The position numbers and the translations under genes were made by a program. From contig JAPPAR010000011.1 in assembly GCA_026705445.1 (NCBI GenBank), forward strand, positions 145,776-209,775: a stretch of 64,000 bases of DNA, written 5' to 3'. The stretch comes from Candidatus Dadabacteria bacterium (GTDB taxonomy: Bacteria > Desulfobacterota_D > UBA1144 > Nemesobacterales > Nemesobacteraceae). The notes below the pieces were generated by a model. The model had not been told where the DNA came from. It did not search any database and was given only the letters and a program-made list of their open reading frames with translations. Shown in pieces: positions 7,874 to 48,544 of this stretch. Numbering within the stretch: the stretch's first letter is position 1; every line of letters begins with the position of its first letter.

Positions 7874-7951
7874 TGGCGTCCCCGAGGGGATTTGAACCCC
7901 TGTTACCGGCGTGAAAGGCCGATGTTTTAGGCCTGACTAGACGACGGGGAC
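7874..7951 (-). tRNA. tRNA-Glu (anticodon UUC)
   Basis: The minus-strand read GTCCCCGTCGTCTAGTCAGGCCTAAAACATCGGCCTTTCACGCCGGTAACAGGGGTTCAAATCCCCTCGGGGACGCCA folds as a cloverleaf. The anticodon stem is TCGGC/GCCGG, the loop is CTTTCAC and a CCA end is encoded. The gene sits just upstream of gltX. Confidence 0.8.
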
Positions 7952-38049: not shown

Positions 38050-38433
38050 TTAAAGTGCTGGGTCCAATATATGTTGTTTTAAAGAAACATCAACAGAATT
38101 TTTATCCTTCTTCGATAAACATCCTAGTCGTCTGATAATCATCGATTTTTCTAACGTAAAGAGTTTTAAGCGCACTACCGACGGCACTGCTAAATTGGCG
38201 TCGGCGGGGTCTTTGAGTTTGATATCGCTTTGCCAAGAACTACGCTTGGCGGTTGTGACCATCGCTAAAATCAATTGATCGTGGTTTTCATTGAACTCTT
38301 CGGATGATATAACCAAAGCGGGCCTGCGCTTTTTAACAGAAGAATCGGTAAAGGGGAAAGAAACAACTACAATATCATGGGGTTTAAAGGTTACGCCATG
38401 CATCTTCATCCTCATCTGATAGCCATTCCTCAA
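38050..38433 (-). CDS. MazF/PemK-family toxin (mRNA interferase)
   Basis: The pattern DIVVVSFPFTDSSVKKRRPALVIS matches PemK/MazF. The true start is probably one of the internal Met (M7/M9/M11), and it overlaps the upstream antitoxin. Confidence 0.7.
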   Translation of the reverse strand: MRNGYQMRMKMHGVTFKPHDIVVVSFPFTDSSVKKRRPALVISSEEFNENHDQLILAMVTTAKRSSWQSDIKLKDPADANLAVPSVVRLKLFTLEKSMIIRRLGCLSKKDKNSVDVSLKQHILDPAL

Positions 38434-38608
38434 GGTTTGAAGAAATGCTATCCAAATAAGTGTCTTTAGTGGGCTTGAGCTTGGTTACAATAACACGGTC
38501 TCCGTCTAACTCGAAAACAAGCTTGTCACCTGTTTTAAAGTGTGCGGCCTTACGCAATCCATGAGGAATAGTGACTTGGCCTTTCGAAGTGATTTTGGAA
38601 ATTTCCAC
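38384..38608 (-). CDS. AbrB/MazE/SpoVT-family antitoxin
   Basis: The start is GTG behind GGAGG. The ISKITSKGQVTIPHGLRKAAHFKTGDKLVFELDGDRVIV stretch is a swapped-hairpin (SpoVT/AbrB) domain. The acidic C-terminus is typical of antitoxins. Confidence 0.7.
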   Translation of the reverse strand: MEISKITSKGQVTIPHGLRKAAHFKTGDKLVFELDGDRVIVTKLKPTKDTYLDSISSNLEEWLSDEDEDAWRNL

Positions 38609-38720
38609 AACAACGTACCTCCTTACATGTAAGGATAACAAGGAAGCGAAAATATGCAAGGACATCGAAAACAGTACGACACTACTGAAATGGTAGCAGC
38701 AGTCTCGCCTCCAAGGCTGG

Positions 38721-40337: not shown

Positions 40338-41090
40338 CTAAGTTCGCAAAGGCTGATGAGCACAAACTTTTTTCCTTGAGTTTTTCTTTTTCAGTATTTG
40401 TTGTATCTGTTTTGCGAGTTCTTCCGGCACCTTTTCTTCTTTTCCGAGTGAAAGAAGCAACCTGAAAAAATCATTCTTTAGGGTGTCTTTTGAGTGATGT
40501 CTATGAAGTTGCAACAAAACTTCACTGTGACATTCTCGAACCTTCAATCTGCTTTTGCAAGGGCAGGGAAGATGGCCACGGTAGCCATACTCGAAAAGAA
40601 AAGCGAGCATTGTTAATATGTTGACATGACTACCTAAGCCCAGATCATCTCTGTAATACTCAATAATTCCCTCAACACCATGTGCACGCTCGCCAAAAGG
40701 GTGCTGGCCGTACTTTTTCCAATAGCAGTAACCGTATAAATATGGAATAACTAGATGATTTACGAACCCGAGTAAGGACTCTTGTTCTAGGAAAAACAAG
40801 CGTTTCTCAATTGGGGTAGCCAGACAGAGGGTCCCATCTTGATTCAGGTGTTCATAGTTTTGGTCGATTTTTCCACCTATTTCTCTTACAACCGGAAGAA
40901 CTTCTGGGTAAGCACTGGGAATAGCAAGTTCGATGTCAAAGCAGTCTGTAATCACTGGGAACCCATCGAAGGACGCTTCAAACGAAAGAGGACCTTTTAT
41001 AACTGTTTTCCGGTTCTGAAGAGATATATCTGTAAGGCCTCTATGAGTTTTTTTTAATTCGCAAATTTGGCTTCCGACCTTATTCTTCAT
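40338..41090 (-). CDS. E2 (UBC-fold)-like protein, Cap2-short-type CBASS accessory, with a Cys/His-rich C-terminal extension
   Basis: The UBC-like pattern is ...GPLSFEASFDGFPVITDCFDIELAIPSAYPEVLP...YEHLNQDGTLCLATP (compare HPN...G.ICL). The extra ~90 aa carry CPCKSRLKVRECH...HRHH. The low-GC context is shared with the two upstream genes. Confidence 0.55.
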   Translation of the reverse strand: MKNKVGSQICELKKTHRGLTDISLQNRKTVIKGPLSFEASFDGFPVITDCFDIELAIPSAYPEVLPVVREIGGKIDQNYEHLNQDGTLCLATPIEKRLFFLEQESLLGFVNHLVIPYLYGYCYWKKYGQHPFGERAHGVEGIIEYYRDDLGLGSHVNILTMLAFLFEYGYRGHLPCPCKSRLKVRECHSEVLLQLHRHHSKDTLKNDFFRLLLSLGKEEKVPEELAKQIQQILKKKNSRKKVCAHQPLRT

Positions 41091-41094
41091 TCAT

Positions 41095-42294
41095 TTAGTT
41101 TCTCCATGGCTTTCGTGGTCTGGAAATATGAATCTTCGGTGGGCTTTCGATTTCTCTAGGTGGTACTATCTGTTCCAAATTTCCCAGCACGGGTACACTG
41201 CCTAAAGCAGAAGTAAGAGTTCTTTGGACTTCATTTCGGTTATCTTTACCCAATATATCAACCAGATCTTCTTGTAGACACCTTAACCACATGAAGAAAG
41301 CCTCCGCTCTAGCATGATTATCTTCGTGCCACCTGTCTGCAAAGTTTTCCTCTGGATTAACCGGATTGCCTATATACCACTTCCCATCGGGAGTCCTCTT
41401 TATGGGGCTAATTGACTCTAGGGTTGGTTCAAGTGCTCGACCCTCAAACAGCGCTACGTGTGCACTTAAACTGGCCACGATGTTCTTCAGAGCGGAGTAA
41501 ACATCTGATTCATTTCGATAAAAATATGCGGAGAGGGTTGTAATAATTATTGAGATTGGAGCATAGTCAACACGCTCTGCATTATTGAACTTAATATCAC
41601 GGTGACGCTTCATAATTTGAATCGTGCGTTGAAGAGGGGTACGTACCAACTGATCTGGTACATCTTCAATTTTTGCATATATCTCGGGCACTCGATTTTG
41701 AATAAATTTCTTCTGCTCAGCATATACGAGGTCGAACGCAGGCTTGTTCCGGCCATCAAACCATAGACCATACCCTTTAGGGTCGCTTATTGACCATCTA
41801 TAGAGGGAAAGAAATTTATTTGTTATTGCAATTGCTGTATTCAGATAGCCTTTTGGATAAGGGACTGATGGCAGAACATCTAAGTGAAAACCTACATTGT
41901 CTTCCTCAGAGTATATTAGAGTCCAGCACCTCTTGCCTTCCTCATCTAGCATTCTCTTATACCTGTCATGTTCTTTTAGCCTGTCACCGACTAACTGCTT
42001 TACGTACTCAGGCTTGGCCCACTCTTTTAGCAAGGGGATTTCGCACACAAGATCAATGTCATAATCTGCTTCAATACCGTTCCTTATTGGTCTTGTGACT
42101 GTGCCTAACCGAAATGAACCTTGTGGATAGATGTCTAACCCAGAATCACAAGATCCGGGGTAATCTCCGCCTTCCAGCCATTTTGCAACAGCTTGGTAGC
42201 GCTCGACAGCATCTTTGTACTTGACCGGGGAAATATCTAGGTCCCCTGCAACTTCGTTTAAAAAGTTAGAATATCTAGCTTCATCAATTCTCAT
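41095..42294 (-). CDS. cGAS/DncV-like nucleotidyltransferase (CD-NTase)
   Basis: The Pol-beta-type NTase motif is GSFRLGTVTRPIRNGIEADYDIDLV (GS...[DE]x[DE]). At ~400 aa the length is typical, and it is sandwiched between a patatin and an E2-like gene. Confidence 0.75.
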   Translation of the reverse strand: MRIDEARYSNFLNEVAGDLDISPVKYKDAVERYQAVAKWLEGGDYPGSCDSGLDIYPQGSFRLGTVTRPIRNGIEADYDIDLVCEIPLLKEWAKPEYVKQLVGDRLKEHDRYKRMLDEEGKRCWTLIYSEEDNVGFHLDVLPSVPYPKGYLNTAIAITNKFLSLYRWSISDPKGYGLWFDGRNKPAFDLVYAEQKKFIQNRVPEIYAKIEDVPDQLVRTPLQRTIQIMKRHRDIKFNNAERVDYAPISIIITTLSAYFYRNESDVYSALKNIVASLSAHVALFEGRALEPTLESISPIKRTPDGKWYIGNPVNPEENFADRWHEDNHARAEAFFMWLRCLQEDLVDILGKDNRNEVQRTLTSALGSVPVLGNLEQIVPPREIESPPKIHISRPRKPWRN

Positions 42295-42296
42295 TC

Positions 42297-43304
42297 TTAA
42301 TCCTCCAACTTATAATATGGTTTGAAAGCTTCTACTGGTTTGTCGAAAAATATAGCTTCGAGGCTGGGTTGCCAGCTTCGCCCCTCGGAGTGGCCGAGTC
42401 CTTTTAAGTCTTGTATGGTCTTTGTGTCGTCCATTTTATAGGTGTTATATGGAACCGTCTGATTTACTCTGTATATAGCGGTACGTTCATGTTCATGACC
42501 CGTTAACAGTTTTGCGATACCCATAGCCCCCTGGGACTGTCCGTCCATGAATAGGTTAATAATTCTTGAGTTAAGCGTTCCGAGACCAGCGCGTTTTGGT
42601 ATATTGTACGCCTCCTGCAGACACCCTAGACTTAAGACGCGAAGCGACTCTCTTGGCCAGTTCAGCAGGGAGATGGCCTCAACAACAGCAATCGCTACAG
42701 GATTGTTTGCCCATATACCGCCGTCAATGAGGGCGACACCATGCTGTGTAACGTGTTGCTTGAAATAGGAAGGAGCTGCTGATGTCGCCATAGCTACATC
42801 AACTGCGCTTGATTTGTAATCTGTTTTTAGCCGAGGATGATGTGCTGTTTTATAGATATAGACGGAATTAGCAACCGGATTCCAAGCTGGAATAAGTAAC
42901 CGGGTTTTTGCTTCACCGATGCGTTTTTCCCCAAGCACATCATGAAGAACAGCTCGGAGAGGTTCAGAATTATACTTTCTTAGAAAACACCATTTAACTG
43001 CTCGGATTTTCCTGAGGAGAAAATTCAGAAACGGTCCATTATTTTTACCAAATACCTCATAACTTCTGTTTTCGTAAAAATTCAATAGTTGCGATGCTGA
43101 AACTCCCATGCTGAGACCAAGCGCAATGATTCCTCCTGTGGAACTTCCCGCAATTAGGTCGAAATACTTTCCAATAGGGTGATCAAGGTGTTTTTCCAGT
43201 TCAGCAAGAAATGCCGCAGGAAAAGTACCGAGGACTCCCCCTCCGTCAATACATAGGATTCGTTTTTTTGCTATTCCGGTATTTTCTTTCTTAACCCTGT
43301 TCAA
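42297..43304 (-). CDS. patatin-like phospholipase (CapV-like CBASS effector)
   Basis: The oxyanion motif is DGGGVLG, the nucleophile elbow is GSSTGG (GxSxG), and the catalytic Asp lies in ...IDGG... Confidence 0.85.
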   Translation of the reverse strand: MNRVKKENTGIAKKRILCIDGGGVLGTFPAAFLAELEKHLDHPIGKYFDLIAGSSTGGIIALGLSMGVSASQLLNFYENRSYEVFGKNNGPFLNFLLRKIRAVKWCFLRKYNSEPLRAVLHDVLGEKRIGEAKTRLLIPAWNPVANSVYIYKTAHHPRLKTDYKSSAVDVAMATSAAPSYFKQHVTQHGVALIDGGIWANNPVAIAVVEAISLLNWPRESLRVLSLGCLQEAYNIPKRAGLGTLNSRIINLFMDGQSQGAMGIAKLLTGHEHERTAIYRVNQTVPYNTYKMDDTKTIQDLKGLGHSEGRSWQPSLEAIFFDKPVEAFKPYYKLED

Positions 43305-43526
43305 TTTTTCTTCTTGCGATCTTTGTTATTAGGTGCAACAGTAAAAAATACTTGAAAAAGGTCCCTGTTTCTTTTATAATGTTGACTGTTACAAGCTACA
43401 TATTTTATTCTAAGGAAGTTATTTTTTTATTTTGTTTTAGCAAGCTAGCGCAGCATGTTGCCTAGTACAGACAACAGAATAATTGATCTTTTTTGCTTGT
43501 CAAGAATTTTCTCAAAATAATATAGA

Positions 43527-43910
43527 ATGTCTTTTGGTTATGCTTTGAAAAAGTTTCGTGAAGGGCGTGGTTTAACCCTTCGAGAGCTTGGGAAACTGTG
43601 TGGAATAGACCATACCTATATCCATCGATTGGAAAAAGAAGAAAGGACTTCCCCATCGGAAGAAACTGTCGACTCTCTCATTAATACACTCAAGCTCCGT
43701 GGACGCAAGGCTCGCCTGTTGCGTTTTCTTGTTGGACAGACAGTCAGTGACCAGCTTGTTGAAGTCTTTCTAGAGGATGAAGAACGCCCCATAGAAATTT
43801 TTGAGTCTTTGGCCTTCATGAGCTTCAGAGGAAAACAACCTAAAACTAAAGAAGAATGGCGCAAGTGGGCTGAACGGCTGGAAGAGTTTATGAAGAATGA
43901 GCAAAGATAA
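43527..43910 (+). CDS. XRE-family HTH transcriptional regulator (CapH-like)
   Basis: The helix-turn-helix is LTLRELGKLCGIDHTYIHRLE. It is divergent from the CBASS operon and overlaps the downstream peptidase gene. Confidence 0.7.
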   Translation: MSFGYALKKFREGRGLTLRELGKLCGIDHTYIHRLEKEERTSPSEETVDSLINTLKLRGRKARLLRFLVGQTVSDQLVEVFLEDEERPIEIFESLAFMSFRGKQPKTKEEWRKWAERLEEFMKNEQR

Positions 43911-44802
43911 AGCAAAAGAGCTTGAAATTGTTTTAAAGGCTCGCGATTTCATTAGAGAATCTGGAATAAATTCCGTGCCTGTTGATCTTAAGCGTTACTG
44001 TGCGGTTGCTAAGGCTAAAATTAAGGTTCGCTATGATCTCGATGATGAAGAATCAGGCCAGACTTTTCCCTTGAACAGTAAAAATATTATCACTGTTAAC
44101 GGTAATCATACGGAAGAAAGGCAACGATTTACAGTTCTGCACGAGATTGGTCATATTATTCTGGAACTACCCTCAAGGCATCAAAATGGTTGTATAAAAA
44201 CAACTGATTTGATCAGTTACAGGCAACGCCCAGAAGAAGAGGTCCTATGCGATATTTTTGCGGCGGAATGCCTCTTGCCGTATGATTTTTTCGAGAAGGA
44301 TATTGAAGATGTTGACATATGTCTCGATACGATAAAGAACCTGTCAAAACGTTACAAAGCTTCTATACACTCTACAGGTTCCAGGTTTGCTGCTAATTGT
44401 GAAGGGCTTTGTTCTTTTGTTCTTATTGAAGAAGGTAAAATTCGCTATGTATCCAGTTCAAAATCTCTGCGTGAACTTAAGGGCTGGATTGACATCGGTG
44501 TGCCAGTTCCTCAAAACAGCGCAGCTTTTCAACTGATCAAAAATCGATCTGAGACTGAGCATTACGATGATGAAATTCCTACTGAGATTTGGTTCAACAA
44601 TGGTATCGGAAATTACGATATGTTGTGTGAGGAAGCAATCTTTATAAAAGAATGGAATCAATGTCTTTCCATTCTTTGGTTTGATGAAAACTTGAGACCT
44701 GCAGGTGAAATCGAACCTTACGATGTTGATTATGGGGAATCGTCATTACCCAGAGAATTTGATGGAGTATTGACGTGGCCATCAAGAAGTCGGAGGAGAT
44801 AA
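43897..44802 (+). CDS. ImmA/IrrE-family zinc metallopeptidase (CapP-like)
   Basis: The HEIGH motif (VLHEIGHIILE) is followed by a downstream Glu/Cys-rich region. It is paired with the XRE HTH. Confidence 0.75.
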   Translation: MSKDKAKELEIVLKARDFIRESGINSVPVDLKRYCAVAKAKIKVRYDLDDEESGQTFPLNSKNIITVNGNHTEERQRFTVLHEIGHIILELPSRHQNGCIKTTDLISYRQRPEEEVLCDIFAAECLLPYDFFEKDIEDVDICLDTIKNLSKRYKASIHSTGSRFAANCEGLCSFVLIEEGKIRYVSSSKSLRELKGWIDIGVPVPQNSAAFQLIKNRSETEHYDDEIPTEIWFNNGIGNYDMLCEEAIFIKEWNQCLSILWFDENLRPAGEIEPYDVDYGESSLPREFDGVLTWPSRSRRR

Positions 44803-44868: not shown

Positions 44869-45942
44869 ATGTATACAGACTATACTGTTTCAGAAACAGA
44901 CTCCCAAAATTGTCCTGATAACGGAAGACACTTCTGTAGATATTTTCAACTCCAAAACAGACGGTATTTAGGAAACAAATACAAGTTACTTGGATTTATT
45001 GAGAATGTAATTTCTCAAAAGTGCGAGTCGGTAGCCTCTTTGTGTGATATTTTTGCCGGTACCGGTGCAGTTTCTGAAAGATTCAATAGTTTGGAAGTTA
45101 AAATTATTTCCAATGATCTTCTTTTTGCTAACTATGTTTGCTTGAATGCGTTTTTAGGAATTGCCGGCTACCAGTTAGCAAATATTTTTGAAAAAATAGA
45201 ATATCTTAATAGTCTGCCGAGCGATGAAGAAAACTATTTTTCGAAACACTTTGGTGGAACGTATTTCTCAGACGAGAACGCAAGGAAAATTGGAGCGGTA
45301 CGCGAGGAAATAGAAAAAATCGCGGAAAATGAGGAGGAAAGAAACGTCCTGATTTGTTCGTTGCTTTATGCGGCGGATAAGGTTGCCAATACAGTGGGTC
45401 ACTACGACGCTTTCCGTAAGAAGTTGGACATGCTACAGCCGGTAACTCTTCTGATTCCTTCTATTGACTATTCACGTAATTTGAACAACGAGATTTACAA
45501 GGAGGATGCAAACGTGCTGATTGAAAAGATTTCTTGCGATGTCTTGTATGTCGATCCACCATATAATTCACGTCAATACTCTGACGCATATCATCTTTTG
45601 GAAAATCTTGCGGAATGGAAGAAGCCCGAGGTTATTGGTGTAGGCAAGAAAATGGACCGTTCTCATATAAAGAGTGCCTATTGTCTCAAGGATGCAGCGA
45701 CCGCGTTTGCAGACTTGGTCGAAAAGGCGAACTGTAACCATATTCTGCTTTCTTATAACAATACTGGTGATTCAAAGGATGGGCGCTCAAATGCAAGAAT
45801 GAGTGATGATGAGATTCTCCAAATTCTGGATGATAAAGGAGAAATTGAAGTTTTTGAAAAGGATTACAAACCCTTTACAACGGGAAAGAGTAATGGAGAG
45901 AGCAACGCGGAACGAATTTTCTATTGCAGAGTAACGAAATAA
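44869..45942 (+). CDS. D12-class (Dam-like) N6-adenine DNA methyltransferase
   Basis: The N-terminus RYLGNKYKLL, the AdoMet motif DIFAGTGAVS and the catalytic DPPY (YVDPPYNS) are present. Confidence 0.8.
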   Translation: MYTDYTVSETDSQNCPDNGRHFCRYFQLQNRRYLGNKYKLLGFIENVISQKCESVASLCDIFAGTGAVSERFNSLEVKIISNDLLFANYVCLNAFLGIAGYQLANIFEKIEYLNSLPSDEENYFSKHFGGTYFSDENARKIGAVREEIEKIAENEEERNVLICSLLYAADKVANTVGHYDAFRKKLDMLQPVTLLIPSIDYSRNLNNEIYKEDANVLIEKISCDVLYVDPPYNSRQYSDAYHLLENLAEWKKPEVIGVGKKMDRSHIKSAYCLKDAATAFADLVEKANCNHILLSYNNTGDSKDGRSNARMSDDEILQILDDKGEIEVFEKDYKPFTTGKSNGESNAERIFYCRVTK

Positions 45943-47759
45943 TGACGAAAAAACCTTGGTCGGTTACAACAACGGTACGAAACCCCGACAGATTAAGAGG
46001 CTTTTTGGCCGTTTTGCAAGAGCTTGAAGGCTCGGATTGGAACCATGAGAATCAGAAAAAGTATCAAATTCTTCTGATTCAATCTAGGCTATACGGTTAC
46101 GGAAAACAGCAGTTTTACAACGGACTTACGGACGAACAAATTGAATTAATTGATAACCCGTCAACGGAGATTTCTTTTGAACAAGCAGAGGAGATTTTCG
46201 ATGAGAAAAATTACGAAGATCCTCCAATGCGTGGAAGACAATCATTAAACCCTTTGAAAAAGTTCGGATTTGCTGTAATCAAAAATAGAAAAATATTTAT
46301 TACGGACTTGGGAAGGTTGTTTTTACAGGATGATTTTAAAGATAATCTTGGAGAAATTTTTCTTAAAAGTTTCCTAAAGTGGCAATTACCGAATCCTGAT
46401 AGTCAAGACTATCCAAAGGACACATATTACGATGTCAAGCCCTTTGTTGCCACGCTTCATTTAATTAACAAAGTAAATCAAAAAGAAATCGATTGTGACA
46501 ACAAACCAAAAGGGCTCAGCAAACAGGAATTCTCTCTTTTTGTTCCAACACTACTGCACTACAAAGATATAGCTTTCTATGCCCAAAGAATCGTTGACTT
46601 GAGACGAGAAGGAACAACAAGAAGTGGGGTTGTTTCAGAAAGCTACAAAAAACAGTTTGCAGAGAAATTCCTGGAAACTGATAACCCCGAGGAAGTAGAT
46701 AAGCTCCTAAAAAACCTGAAGGACTATGGGGATAATACCATTCGTTATTTTCGGTTAATTCCATATGTTTACATTCATGGTGGTGACTTCTATGTTGACT
46801 TGGAGCCGAGAAGAAAAATTGAAATCGAATCACTGCTCAATCATAACAACGCGCAGACAAAAAGCTTTGAGTCAAAAGAAGAATATTTTGCATATATATC
46901 TGATATTTCTAGACCACAGCTTCCTTGGGAGACTTTTGAGAAACGTATTGAGATTATTAAAGAGCTTATTGAGAAAGTACATCAATGCGAAAGAGTTTTG
47001 CAGAAGGAAAATATAGAGATCAGGAACTACTTGAAGATGCAAAATGATGAGTTGGGAGATTACATAACGGAATTAAGGAATTACAGACGATCATTGCTGG
47101 AAGAGAAAAATCGCAAAAAATCTCAATCAGTTGAACAAATTAAGTCTTGTATTAAAAACCTGAAAAATATTCATCATTCTGAAGGCGATCGCCCGATACT
47201 ACTTGAGAAACTGGCTACACTCGGTTTACATGCACTTGATGACGCAAGGGAAATAAAACCCAATTAACCAGTCGGGGATGACAATGAACCGACTTTTACG
47301 GCCCCGGGAGATGTTCCAGACATTGAATGTTTTTATAAAAGCTTCAATGCAATTTGCGAAGTTACGATGTTAACCGGTCGGAATCAATGGTACTACGAAG
47401 GGCAGCCGGTGATGAGGCATTTCAGGGATTTTGAAGATGAGCACAAAGACAAACTATCTTACTGCGTGTTTATTGCCCCAAAGTTGCATAGAGATACCAT
47501 CAATACTTTTTGGAATGCGGTAAAGTATGGATACGAAGGGCAACGGCAAAAAATAATTCCACTTTCAATTAGTAACTTTGTTTCTATTTTAAAATCCTTG
47601 CTTGATATGAAAACGAAACAAAAATCTTTGAGGCATGAAAATCTTTCTTCGCTGTATGACCAGATATTGTCCTCTACTAATTCTTTTAGTGATTCAAATG
47701 AATGGTTGGGAAGTATCAGAGCTACTATTTCCTCGTGGCAGAAAGACATCGCTTCGTAA
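45924..47759 (+). pseudogene. large Type IIS-like restriction endonuclease gene (possibly AlwI/BstNBI family) interrupted by one in-frame TAA at 47265-47267
   Basis: The track ORFs 45924..47267 and 47367..47759 are in the same frame. Translating across the gap gives ...REIKPN*PVGDDNEPTFTAPGDVPDIECFYKSFNAICEVTMLTGRNQWYYEG..., a PD-x(n)-E-x-(K/T)-like nuclease core downstream of the stop. It is flanked by two methyltransferases. Confidence 0.5.
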
Positions 47760-47773
47760 ATGCGAGGGCAGAT

Positions 47774-48544
47774 ATGAGAACGGGGATTATATACAATGGT
47801 GATTGCGTCAAAGTGATGAGAGAGAAAATCGATGAAAAATCCATCGATTTAATTTTCGCTGACCCTCCTTACAATCTTTCTGGAAGTGGCTTAAAATGGG
47901 AAGGAAACAAAACCGGCGGCAACTGGTACATGATCAATGAAAATTGGGACAAAATGACAGCTCCTGAGTATATGCAATTTACGAGACAGTGGATCAGTTC
48001 TTGTCATAGGGTTTTGAAGGATAACGGGTCAATTTACATTGCATGCAGTTATCACAATATAAGCGAGGTGATGATTGTATTAAAACAACTTGATTTCAAA
48101 ATCAATAACGTTATTACTTGGCGCAAGACAAACGCGATGCCGAATATGACAAAAAGAGTTTTCACGCACTCAACGGAGTTTATAGTTTGGGCGGTAAAAG
48201 GAAGAGGTTGGACATTCAATTATGAAGAAATAAAGGAAATAAATCCCGAAAAACAAAAGGACGGAAGCCCCAAACAGATGCGCGACTTTTGGGAATTGCC
48301 GCTTGTACAAGGGCGAGAAAGATTGCGGGGTGAAGATAACCGTGCTTTGCACCCTACACAAAAACCGGAAGAAATGCTTAAAAGAATCATATTAGCAAGT
48401 TCTAATGAAGGCGAAGTAGTTCTTGACCCTTTTCTTGGGAGTGGGACAACGACTTATGTGGCAAGAAAATACGGTCGTAAGTGGATTGGAATTGAGCAGA
48501 ATAGTGAGTATGTAGGAATTGCTAAGAAAAGAATGAAAAAGTAA
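47774..48544 (+). CDS. beta-class N6/N4 DNA methyltransferase
   Basis: The catalytic motif is DPPYN. HPTQKP...DPFLGSGTT is the AdoMet motif in the order typical of beta-class enzymes. Confidence 0.85.
   Translation: MRTGIIYNGDCVKVMREKIDEKSIDLIFADPPYNLSGSGLKWEGNKTGGNWYMINENWDKMTAPEYMQFTRQWISSCHRVLKDNGSIYIACSYHNISEVMIVLKQLDFKINNVITWRKTNAMPNMTKRVFTHSTEFIVWAVKGRGWTFNYEEIKEINPEKQKDGSPKQMRDFWELPLVQGRERLRGEDNRALHPTQKPEEMLKRIILASSNEGEVVLDPFLGSGTTTYVARKYGRKWIGIEQNSEYVGIAKKRMKK

Follow-up and report, generated by a model that had tools for sequence, protein, structure and literature searches.

The locus considered here raises the question of what is controlled by a pair of overlapping regulatory genes that stand back to back with an antiphage operon. 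The pair is situated in a 64,000-nucleotide stretch of contig JAPPAR010000011.1 of a metagenome-assembled genome of a Candidatus Dadabacteria bacterium (this whole stretch is called the window below, and all positions refer to it). In a preliminary description it had been read as a helix-turn-helix (HTH) protein and a HEIGH metallopeptidase, CapH/CapP-like regulators in an ImmR/ImmA-like arrangement beside an antiphage signalling system based on cyclic oligonucleotides (CBASS). The analysis indicates that the two genes probably form a CapH/CapP-type, DdrO/IrrE-like repressor–protease switch controlling the divergent, E2-only type II CBASS operon. The function of both proteins in this organism is read solely by homology, from CapH–CapP of E. 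coli and Thauera and from DdrO–IrrE of Deinococcus.

The gene layout was established from the open reading frames (ORFs). The repressor gene capH (XRE-HTH, 127 amino acids) occupies 43527-43910 and the M78 zinc-metallopeptidase gene capP (HEIGH motif, 301 amino acids; MCY3624884.1, annotated as 'ImmA/IrrE family metallo-endopeptidase') occupies 43897-44802, both on the plus strand, with the previously reported overlap of 14 nt (43897-43910). Also as reported (about 220 bp, AT-rich), they diverge from the CBASS operon across an intergenic region of 222 bp with 29.3% GC (43305-43526). The first gene of that operon, on the minus strand at 42297-43304, encodes the effector, a CapV-type patatin-like phospholipase (Pfam Patatin 6.6e-29; PADLOC phospholipase effector 2e-99; NCBIfam CBASS_lipase 243 bits, above the cutoff of 200). 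It is followed on the same strand by the CD-NTase, an oligonucleotide cyclase (41095-42294; PADLOC cyclase 3.1e-111, Pfam DncV-like_NTFase 9.7e-07), and by an E2-only Cap2-like protein of 250 amino acids (40338-41090), which matched the PADLOC E2 profile over its full length (4.3e-77) and Pfam Prok-E2_B weakly. No E1 or JAB gene was present in the ORF list between 40128 and 43304. By its gene content the system is thus classed as a 'short' type II CBASS, composed of CD-NTase, effector and E2-only Cap2-like protein without E1/JAB.

CapP was assigned by profile and by predicted structure. Matches were obtained with Pfam Peptidase_M78 (PF06114; 1.2e-14) and PADLOC capP (1e-49, profile positions 6-242 of 242 covered); the only solved structure matched by sequence was that of Thauera CapP (PDB 7t5t, 3.5e-12), with which a profile of 114 homologues was aligned at an hhalign probability of 98.7% and 24% identity. 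The AlphaFold2 (AF2) model (mean predicted local distance difference test, pLDDT, 81) consists of a peptidase domain, an HTH-like linker and, at the C-terminus, a GAF domain, the same architecture (HExxH peptidase, linker, GAF) as in the E. coli and Thauera proteins, and a Foldseek search with it returned 7t5t first (E 3.6e-13, TM 0.62/0.66) and Deinococcus PprI/IrrE second. The HEIGH motif corresponds to residues 82-86; the zinc ligands and catalytic Glu of the predicted zinc site H82/E83/H86/E115 align with H96, E97, H100 and E129 of Thauera CapP and are kept in 113-114 of the 114 homologues. Binding of single-stranded DNA (ssDNA) by E. coli CapP has been shown to involve R90, K195, W196, Y264 and W280 (Calloji et al. 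2026, 10.64898/2026.05.16.725639). The equivalents in the window protein are R75, R183, Y184, W253 and W294, all of them basic or aromatic and each conserved in at least 98% of the 114 homologues; the first four were placed via the Thauera alignment, W294 only via the common C-terminal WP motif (EVWPPRER in Thauera, LTWPSRSRRR here), which lies outside the aligned region.

These features bear on a different reading of the pair, namely a type II toxin–antitoxin system of the Xre/COG2856 kind, in which the peptidase would be the toxin and the HTH protein its antitoxin, and which would stabilise the surrounding genomic island and play no part in CBASS expression. Two small overlapping genes would suit such a system, PDB 7t5t is labelled 'CapP toxin', and a match to the spr1629 repressor/antitoxin family of NCBIfam was found. 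However, that match scored 24 bits, far below the cutoff of 335, and the capP match extends over the full length including the GAF domain, together with the conserved residues of the ssDNA groove; the palindrome on the cargo-facing promoter and the consistently divergent orientation to defence cargo, both described below, also argue against a toxin–antitoxin role, which is regarded as very improbable.

CapH was assigned in the same manner, with matches to Pfam HTH_31 (9.9e-11) and HTH_3 (3.6e-10) and to PADLOC capH (1.2e-13, profile positions 5-99 of 103). The family profiles thus agree with the CapH/CapP-like identity first proposed for both proteins. In phmmer searches CapH was aligned over its full length to Deinococcus DdrO and also to the N-terminal domain of E. 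coli CapH; a search of the PDB with the C-terminal half alone gave only noise. The AF2 model (pLDDT 92.6) comprises a five-helix HTH domain and a three-helix C-terminal domain, the latter modelled as the DdrO-type form, and the top Foldseek matches were the DdrO structures 6jq1 and 6rnx.

The C-terminal domain also holds the predicted cleavage site. For DdrO the cut has been located between L106 and R107, within the loop that joins the two final helices (PMC6868357), and the phmmer alignment places 'SF/RGKQPKTKEEW' of CapH on 'EL/RGKRPRDKQDW' of DdrO, so that the F100–R101 bond is aligned with the bond cleaved in DdrO. The AF2 model likewise has F100 and R101 in the loop joining the two final helices. 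In E. coli CapH the cut falls between F82 and R83, and Thauera CapH also carries the F/R-G site ('AFF/RGY'). All of 72 CapH homologues have R101, and each of F100 and G102 is kept in at least 90% of them. From alignment and model, F100–R101 is therefore the predicted scissile bond.

Sequence, structure prediction and comparison with characterised systems together place the pair in the CapH/CapP family, of which it is a DdrO-like, divergent member. In the type III CBASS of E. coli MS115-1 and Thauera sp. K11, capH precedes and overlaps capP, and both diverge from the CBASS genes (Lau et al. 2022, bioRxiv 10.1101/2022.04.27.489752); gene order and orientation are the same here, in accordance with the CBASS-linked arrangement proposed at the outset. 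The likeness extends to the equivalents of the ssDNA-groove residues, to the C-terminal F/R-G site of CapH and to a palindrome in the shared promoter region. The differences concern CapH, which has 127 amino acids and a three-helix DdrO-type C-terminal domain as opposed to 107 amino acids and two helices; the candidate operator, GTTGTC-N6/7-GACAAC here as opposed to AGTTCG-N7-CGAACT in the Thauera promoter region; and the cargo, an E2-only type II CBASS with a patatin effector as opposed to a type III CBASS.

Deinococcus DdrO (PMC6868357, PMC10904395) is the best structural match for CapH, with a nearly identical cleavage loop, and its protease IrrE/PprI is also activated by ssDNA (PMC6868357, PMC10904395). 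DdrO/IrrE is, however, a global regulator. A regulon of that kind, in which the repressor acts on dispersed DNA-repair genes via the 17-bp radiation/desiccation response motif (RDRM), was not found in the 64-kb window, which has a single candidate operator locus; the two genes are adjacent, lie in a low-GC defence island and would have the CBASS operon as their target. The pair, whose host is a member of Candidatus Dadabacteria, would work like DdrO/IrrE without constituting a DdrO/IrrE regulon. The ImmR/ImmA module, known from ICEBs1 and phage phi105, is similar in that an M78 peptidase cuts an XRE repressor upon DNA damage and in that control is exerted on a divergent promoter; it differs in regulating integrase and excision genes, of which none are regulated here, and the GAF-containing CapP of the window matches CapP and IrrE better. 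Activation of ImmA has been reported to proceed via RecA or RapI and not by direct ssDNA binding.

The regulatory region was analysed by aligning the spacer of the window with those of nine relatives, including alphaproteobacterial loci at only 55% CapP identity. Four blocks are conserved across the ten loci: a plus-strand -35 (CTTGAAA or TTGTCA); a -10 exactly 17 nt after it (TATAAT in the window); the palindrome TGTTGYC-N6/7-GRCAACA (43456-43476 in the window); and an invariant TGTCAAG, which on the minus strand reads TTGACA (43503..43498). The first two blocks make up the predicted capHP promoter (43352-43380, plus strand; -35 TTGAAA, 17-nt spacer, -10 TATAAT), which matches the consensus at 11 of 12 positions; its CTTG and TAT columns and the 17-nt spacing are invariant in the aligned loci, and equivalents (-35, 17 nt, TAnnnT) are found in distant clades. 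The fourth block provides the -35 of a predicted CBASS promoter on the minus strand (43476-43503; TTGACA at 43503..43498, 16-nt spacer, -10 TATTCT at 43481..43476), with 10 of 12 consensus matches. Positions T1, A2 and T6 of its -10 are invariant in the ten loci and occur in 28, 28 and 37 of 39 loci, respectively. The two promoters, both sigma-70-like and with start sites predicted near 43387 (plus strand) and 43469 (minus strand), appear to face each other, which on consensus matches and conservation would give about 80 nt of overlapping transcription. A back-to-back arrangement, with a capH promoter near the palindrome reading to the right, was rejected, as a TAnnnT box agrees with the conserved positions on the minus strand but not on the plus strand.

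Two elements of the earlier promoter reading are altered by this alignment. The palindrome CTTGTCAAG is indeed present (43496-43504), but as an operator it was discarded: its palindromy is lost in relatives (CTGTCAAGG, CATGTCAAGG, CCGTCAAGA), where only TGTCAA is kept, that is, the minus-strand TTGAC(A/G) at a spacing of 16-17 nt to a TAnnnT box. We therefore infer that CTTGTCAAG is better read as the -35 of the CBASS promoter (TTGACA, minus strand). The TTGACT and TATAAT-like elements were likewise both located; TATAAT (43375-43380) serves as the predicted capHP -10, but TTGACT (43382-43387) follows directly after it and was rejected as a -35, being an operator-like half-site instead. A minor feature of the region concerns the capH leader (43504-43526), which in the window and its closest relatives is AT-rich (AATTTTCTCAAAATAATATAGAATG) without a recognisable Shine–Dalgarno sequence, whereas in more distant relatives AAGGAGG or AAGGGG stands directly after TGTC (compared with loci L006-L012).

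The third block is most likely the CapH operator. This candidate site, termed O1 (43456-43476; TGTTGCC-TAGTACA-GACAACA, 21 bp), abuts the -10 of the CBASS promoter and covers its predicted start site. The candidate operator within 43305-43526 is accordingly a palindrome other than CTTGTCAAG. O1 is unique in the 64-kb window (0 expected by chance), and the first 12 related loci likewise carry a single copy each. Sufficient sequence upstream of capH was available for 59 non-identical loci; the 200 nt preceding the gene contain the exact palindrome in 40 of them, and in 37 of the 40 its end lies at a distance of 30-51 nt from capH. Five variants of the arms were recorded (left arm T to C, right arm A to G), all of them non-compensatory, which favours a protein-binding site over a hairpin; a hairpin or known RNA element in the leader was rejected in view of these variants and of the lack of any Rfam match in the regulatory region.

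A second, weaker operator is tentatively placed directly after the capHP -10 (O2, 43381-43399; GTTGAC-TGTTACA-AGCTAC, its left half being the TTGACT mentioned above), with a centre-to-centre distance of 76 bp to O1. O2 and O1 make up a direct-repeat family, D2, with 73% identity, and an imperfect GTC...GAC palindrome is found at the O2 position in all clades. No further operator copies were detected above chance in the window, weaker matches being at chance level. As a separate observation, in two distant loci (L082 and L084, 34-36% CapP identity) exact GTTG(T/C)C-N6-G(A/G)CAAC palindromes lie about 100 bp apart upstream of capH, accompanied by an extra GACAAC half-site, which supports a multi-operator design.

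The link between the pair and its cargo was followed through related loci. A single-protein pattern scan of genome contigs yielded 3 loci only; beyond the first 12 loci, a metagenome scan with alignment added 80 more. The capH–capP pair, overlapping or abutting, recurs in nearly all of the roughly 90 loci, and the cassette of patatin, CD-NTase, E2, capH and capP was classified in 11, in other Dadabacteria and in many metagenomic contigs. Of the other loci with the same palindrome, three face a full type II CBASS and the remainder DUF3892 or unknown cargo; close relatives of CapH/CapP face DUF3892 with a full type II CBASS, DUF3892 with unknown genes, or an uncharacterised pair of proteins of 316 and 503 amino acids. 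The same promoter block thus stands before varied cargo, and the pair is therefore taken to travel with this block and to regulate whichever cargo diverges from it. If this is true, a single portable module is placed in front of different defence cargos. In L011 (5007-5090) and L012, which carry DUF3892 and a full type II CBASS, about 55 nt adjoining the promoter block resemble the 5' end of the patatin gene of the E2-only cassette (compared with L004 7392-7448); this remnant looks like the scar of a cargo replacement by recombination.

The divergent neighbours in the 12 inspected relatives were defence or unknown genes only, with no phage modules among them. This result bears on a possibility that the preliminary description had raised for a prophage, namely that the two genes serve a prophage or integrative element as its ImmR/ImmA-type immunity module and control excision or lytic genes, not CBASS. 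An XRE repressor with an M78 peptidase is the same type of module, and CBASS, capHP and restriction–modification (R-M) genes form a low-GC island (40.2-48.6 kb; GC 0.38-0.43 against 0.50-0.53 in the flanks) between pyruvate kinase (pyk) and an Na+/H+ exchanger. The syntenic locus L005 (945-3405), moreover, has, beside its cassette, a tyrosine integrase and a second M78 peptidase (381 amino acids) between pyk and CBASS, which hints at a mobile origin of the island. The island of the window, however, holds only CBASS, capHP and R-M genes; its ORFs, Pfam and PADLOC results gave no integrase, excisionase or phage structural gene, nothing convincing was seen in the way of att-like direct repeats flanking it, and no tRNA is near it (the only tRNA of the window is at 7874-7951). 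CapP carries a GAF domain and best matches CapP and IrrE, and the conserved candidate operator sits on the cargo-facing promoter. As the inspected relatives carry defence genes and not phage genes, the prophage-immunity explanation fails and is left with a very low probability.

On the other side of the pair, the genes downstream of capP vary across loci, and the next gene is often convergent. In L004 (9058-11636) and L006 (8952-11591) a second CBASS (CD-NTase with a Saf-2TM/SAVED effector) follows capP co-directionally after 49-150 nt, and there the regulator pair therefore has defence systems on both sides. In the window, AlwI-type R-M genes start 67 nt downstream of capP with no terminator-like site between capP and the D12 methylase, and the same capP–methylase junction occurs in L005. 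CapH might thus act mainly or additionally as a C-protein-like controller of these co-directional genes, which would be read through from the capHP promoter; the co-directional second CBASS of L004 and L006 and weak matches of CapH to R-M controller proteins point in the same direction. Against it, the downstream neighbour is not conserved and in many loci convergent, no operator copy lies near the R-M genes, and the restriction gene of the window has a premature stop. This role is considered improbable, though less so than the two alternatives discussed above.

With a CapH/CapP-type switch acting on CBASS as the preferred reading, the following mechanism is proposed. CapH, as dimers or dimers of dimers, would bind O1; because the minus-strand CBASS promoter has its -10 and predicted start site at O1, such binding would keep CBASS expression low. 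The weaker O2, at the predicted capHP start site, may be a further binding site for CapH. R75, R183, Y184, W253 and W294 are the candidate contact residues on CapP, and activated CapP would cut CapH at F100–R101, whereby the last helix of the dimerisation domain would be removed, CapH would leave the DNA and CBASS transcription would rise. The earlier statement that this CBASS is inducible rather than constitutive was overstated: in the E. coli system that has been studied, the basal level of expression is enough for protection, and the role of CapP is limited to raising expression once DNA has been damaged.

Several results weigh against this reading. Protection of E. coli against phage did not require the CapP-dependent boost (Lau et al. 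2022, bioRxiv 10.1101/2022.04.27.489752). The CapP of the window shares only about 25% identity with its characterised counterpart from Thauera, and BLASTP gave no alignment between its CapH and that of Thauera. The residues by which E. coli CapH contacts DNA or CapP differ here (S32 to T30, W35 to H33, that is, a histidine, R40 to E38 and R44 to S42). The promoter assignments rest on consensus matches, which in the window taken alone were not enriched over shuffled sequences, and no close relative has an O1 as degenerate as that of the window (6 of 9 arm pairs, 7-nt spacer). Finally, CapP has a loop similar in length to the cysteine-switch loop, and C99 in it aligns with C113 of Thauera CapP, but C99 is unique to the window protein among the 114 homologues (others have N, T, K or S), and protease gating may therefore differ from the cysteine switch.

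The cysteine-switch loop is present in about 33% of CBASS-linked CapP proteins and hence not obligatory. Judged from the homologue alignment, the switch does not seem to be conserved in the clade of the window CapP, by which this clade would differ from E. coli and Thauera CapP. Its loop shows instead the invariant pattern S93-x-H95...Y108-x-x-R111-P112 (114 homologues), in a region of low AF2 confidence. Other cysteines are specific to the clade: C118, C125 and C172 are invariant and C256 is kept in 111 of 114, all four being absent from Thauera CapP. The tail (264-301) contains an acidic insertion or linker of about 21 amino acids ahead of the C-terminal WP motif, which the E. coli and Thauera proteins do not have, followed by the clade-conserved LLxELDGxLPWPSKSRRR.

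It is conceivable, though rather doubtful, that the DdrO-like clade follows a distinct logic, with two operators on face-to-face promoters and a protease gating that relies on the invariant S93-x-H95 loop and not on a cysteine switch; the four clade-specific cysteines and the tail with its acidic linker and WPSKSRRR end may also contribute to this gating. Were this true, O1 and O2, about 76 bp apart, would each lie on one start site, and the collision of CBASS and capHP transcription would give a sharper, switch-like response.

With this assignment the known range of the CapH/CapP DNA-damage switch comes to include Candidatus Dadabacteria and E2-only type II CBASS. For a large and as yet uncharacterised branch of DdrO-like members, which bridges Deinococcus DdrO/IrrE and CapH/CapP of E. 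coli and Thauera, a concrete predicted operator (TGTTGTC-N6/7-GACAACA) becomes available together with a promoter layout. Proteins annotated as 'ImmA/IrrE family metallo-endopeptidase' and 'helix-turn-helix protein' become readable as defence regulators. The understanding of how such systems work is left unchanged.

Three further observations concern the surroundings of the pair. Recurrent neighbours of the capHP island are a gene for a 285-amino-acid sigma-70-family protein and one of HSP70/DnaK-like type, and both their side and their orientation vary (L004 678-3484; L007 9111-11917; L008 6711-9517; L011 6687-9490). Sigma factors beside some capHP systems are mentioned by Lau et al. 2022 (bioRxiv 10.1101/2022.04.27.489752); these genes could either be host core genes that mark a hotspot or belong to the system. 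Within the island, the gene of the AlwI-family restriction endonuclease (45942-47759) is interrupted by an in-frame stop at 47265-47267 (Tyr to stop, codon 442 of 605), the orthologue in L005, 82% identical, is intact, and no damage is apparent in the methylases on its two sides (44869-45942 and 47702-48544); the interruption is explained either by decay of the R-M system or by an error in sequencing. Just beyond pyruvate kinase, outside the island, the stretch 38050-38665 encodes a toxin matching PemK/MazF (1e-16) and an antitoxin of MazE/AbrB type (8e-11).

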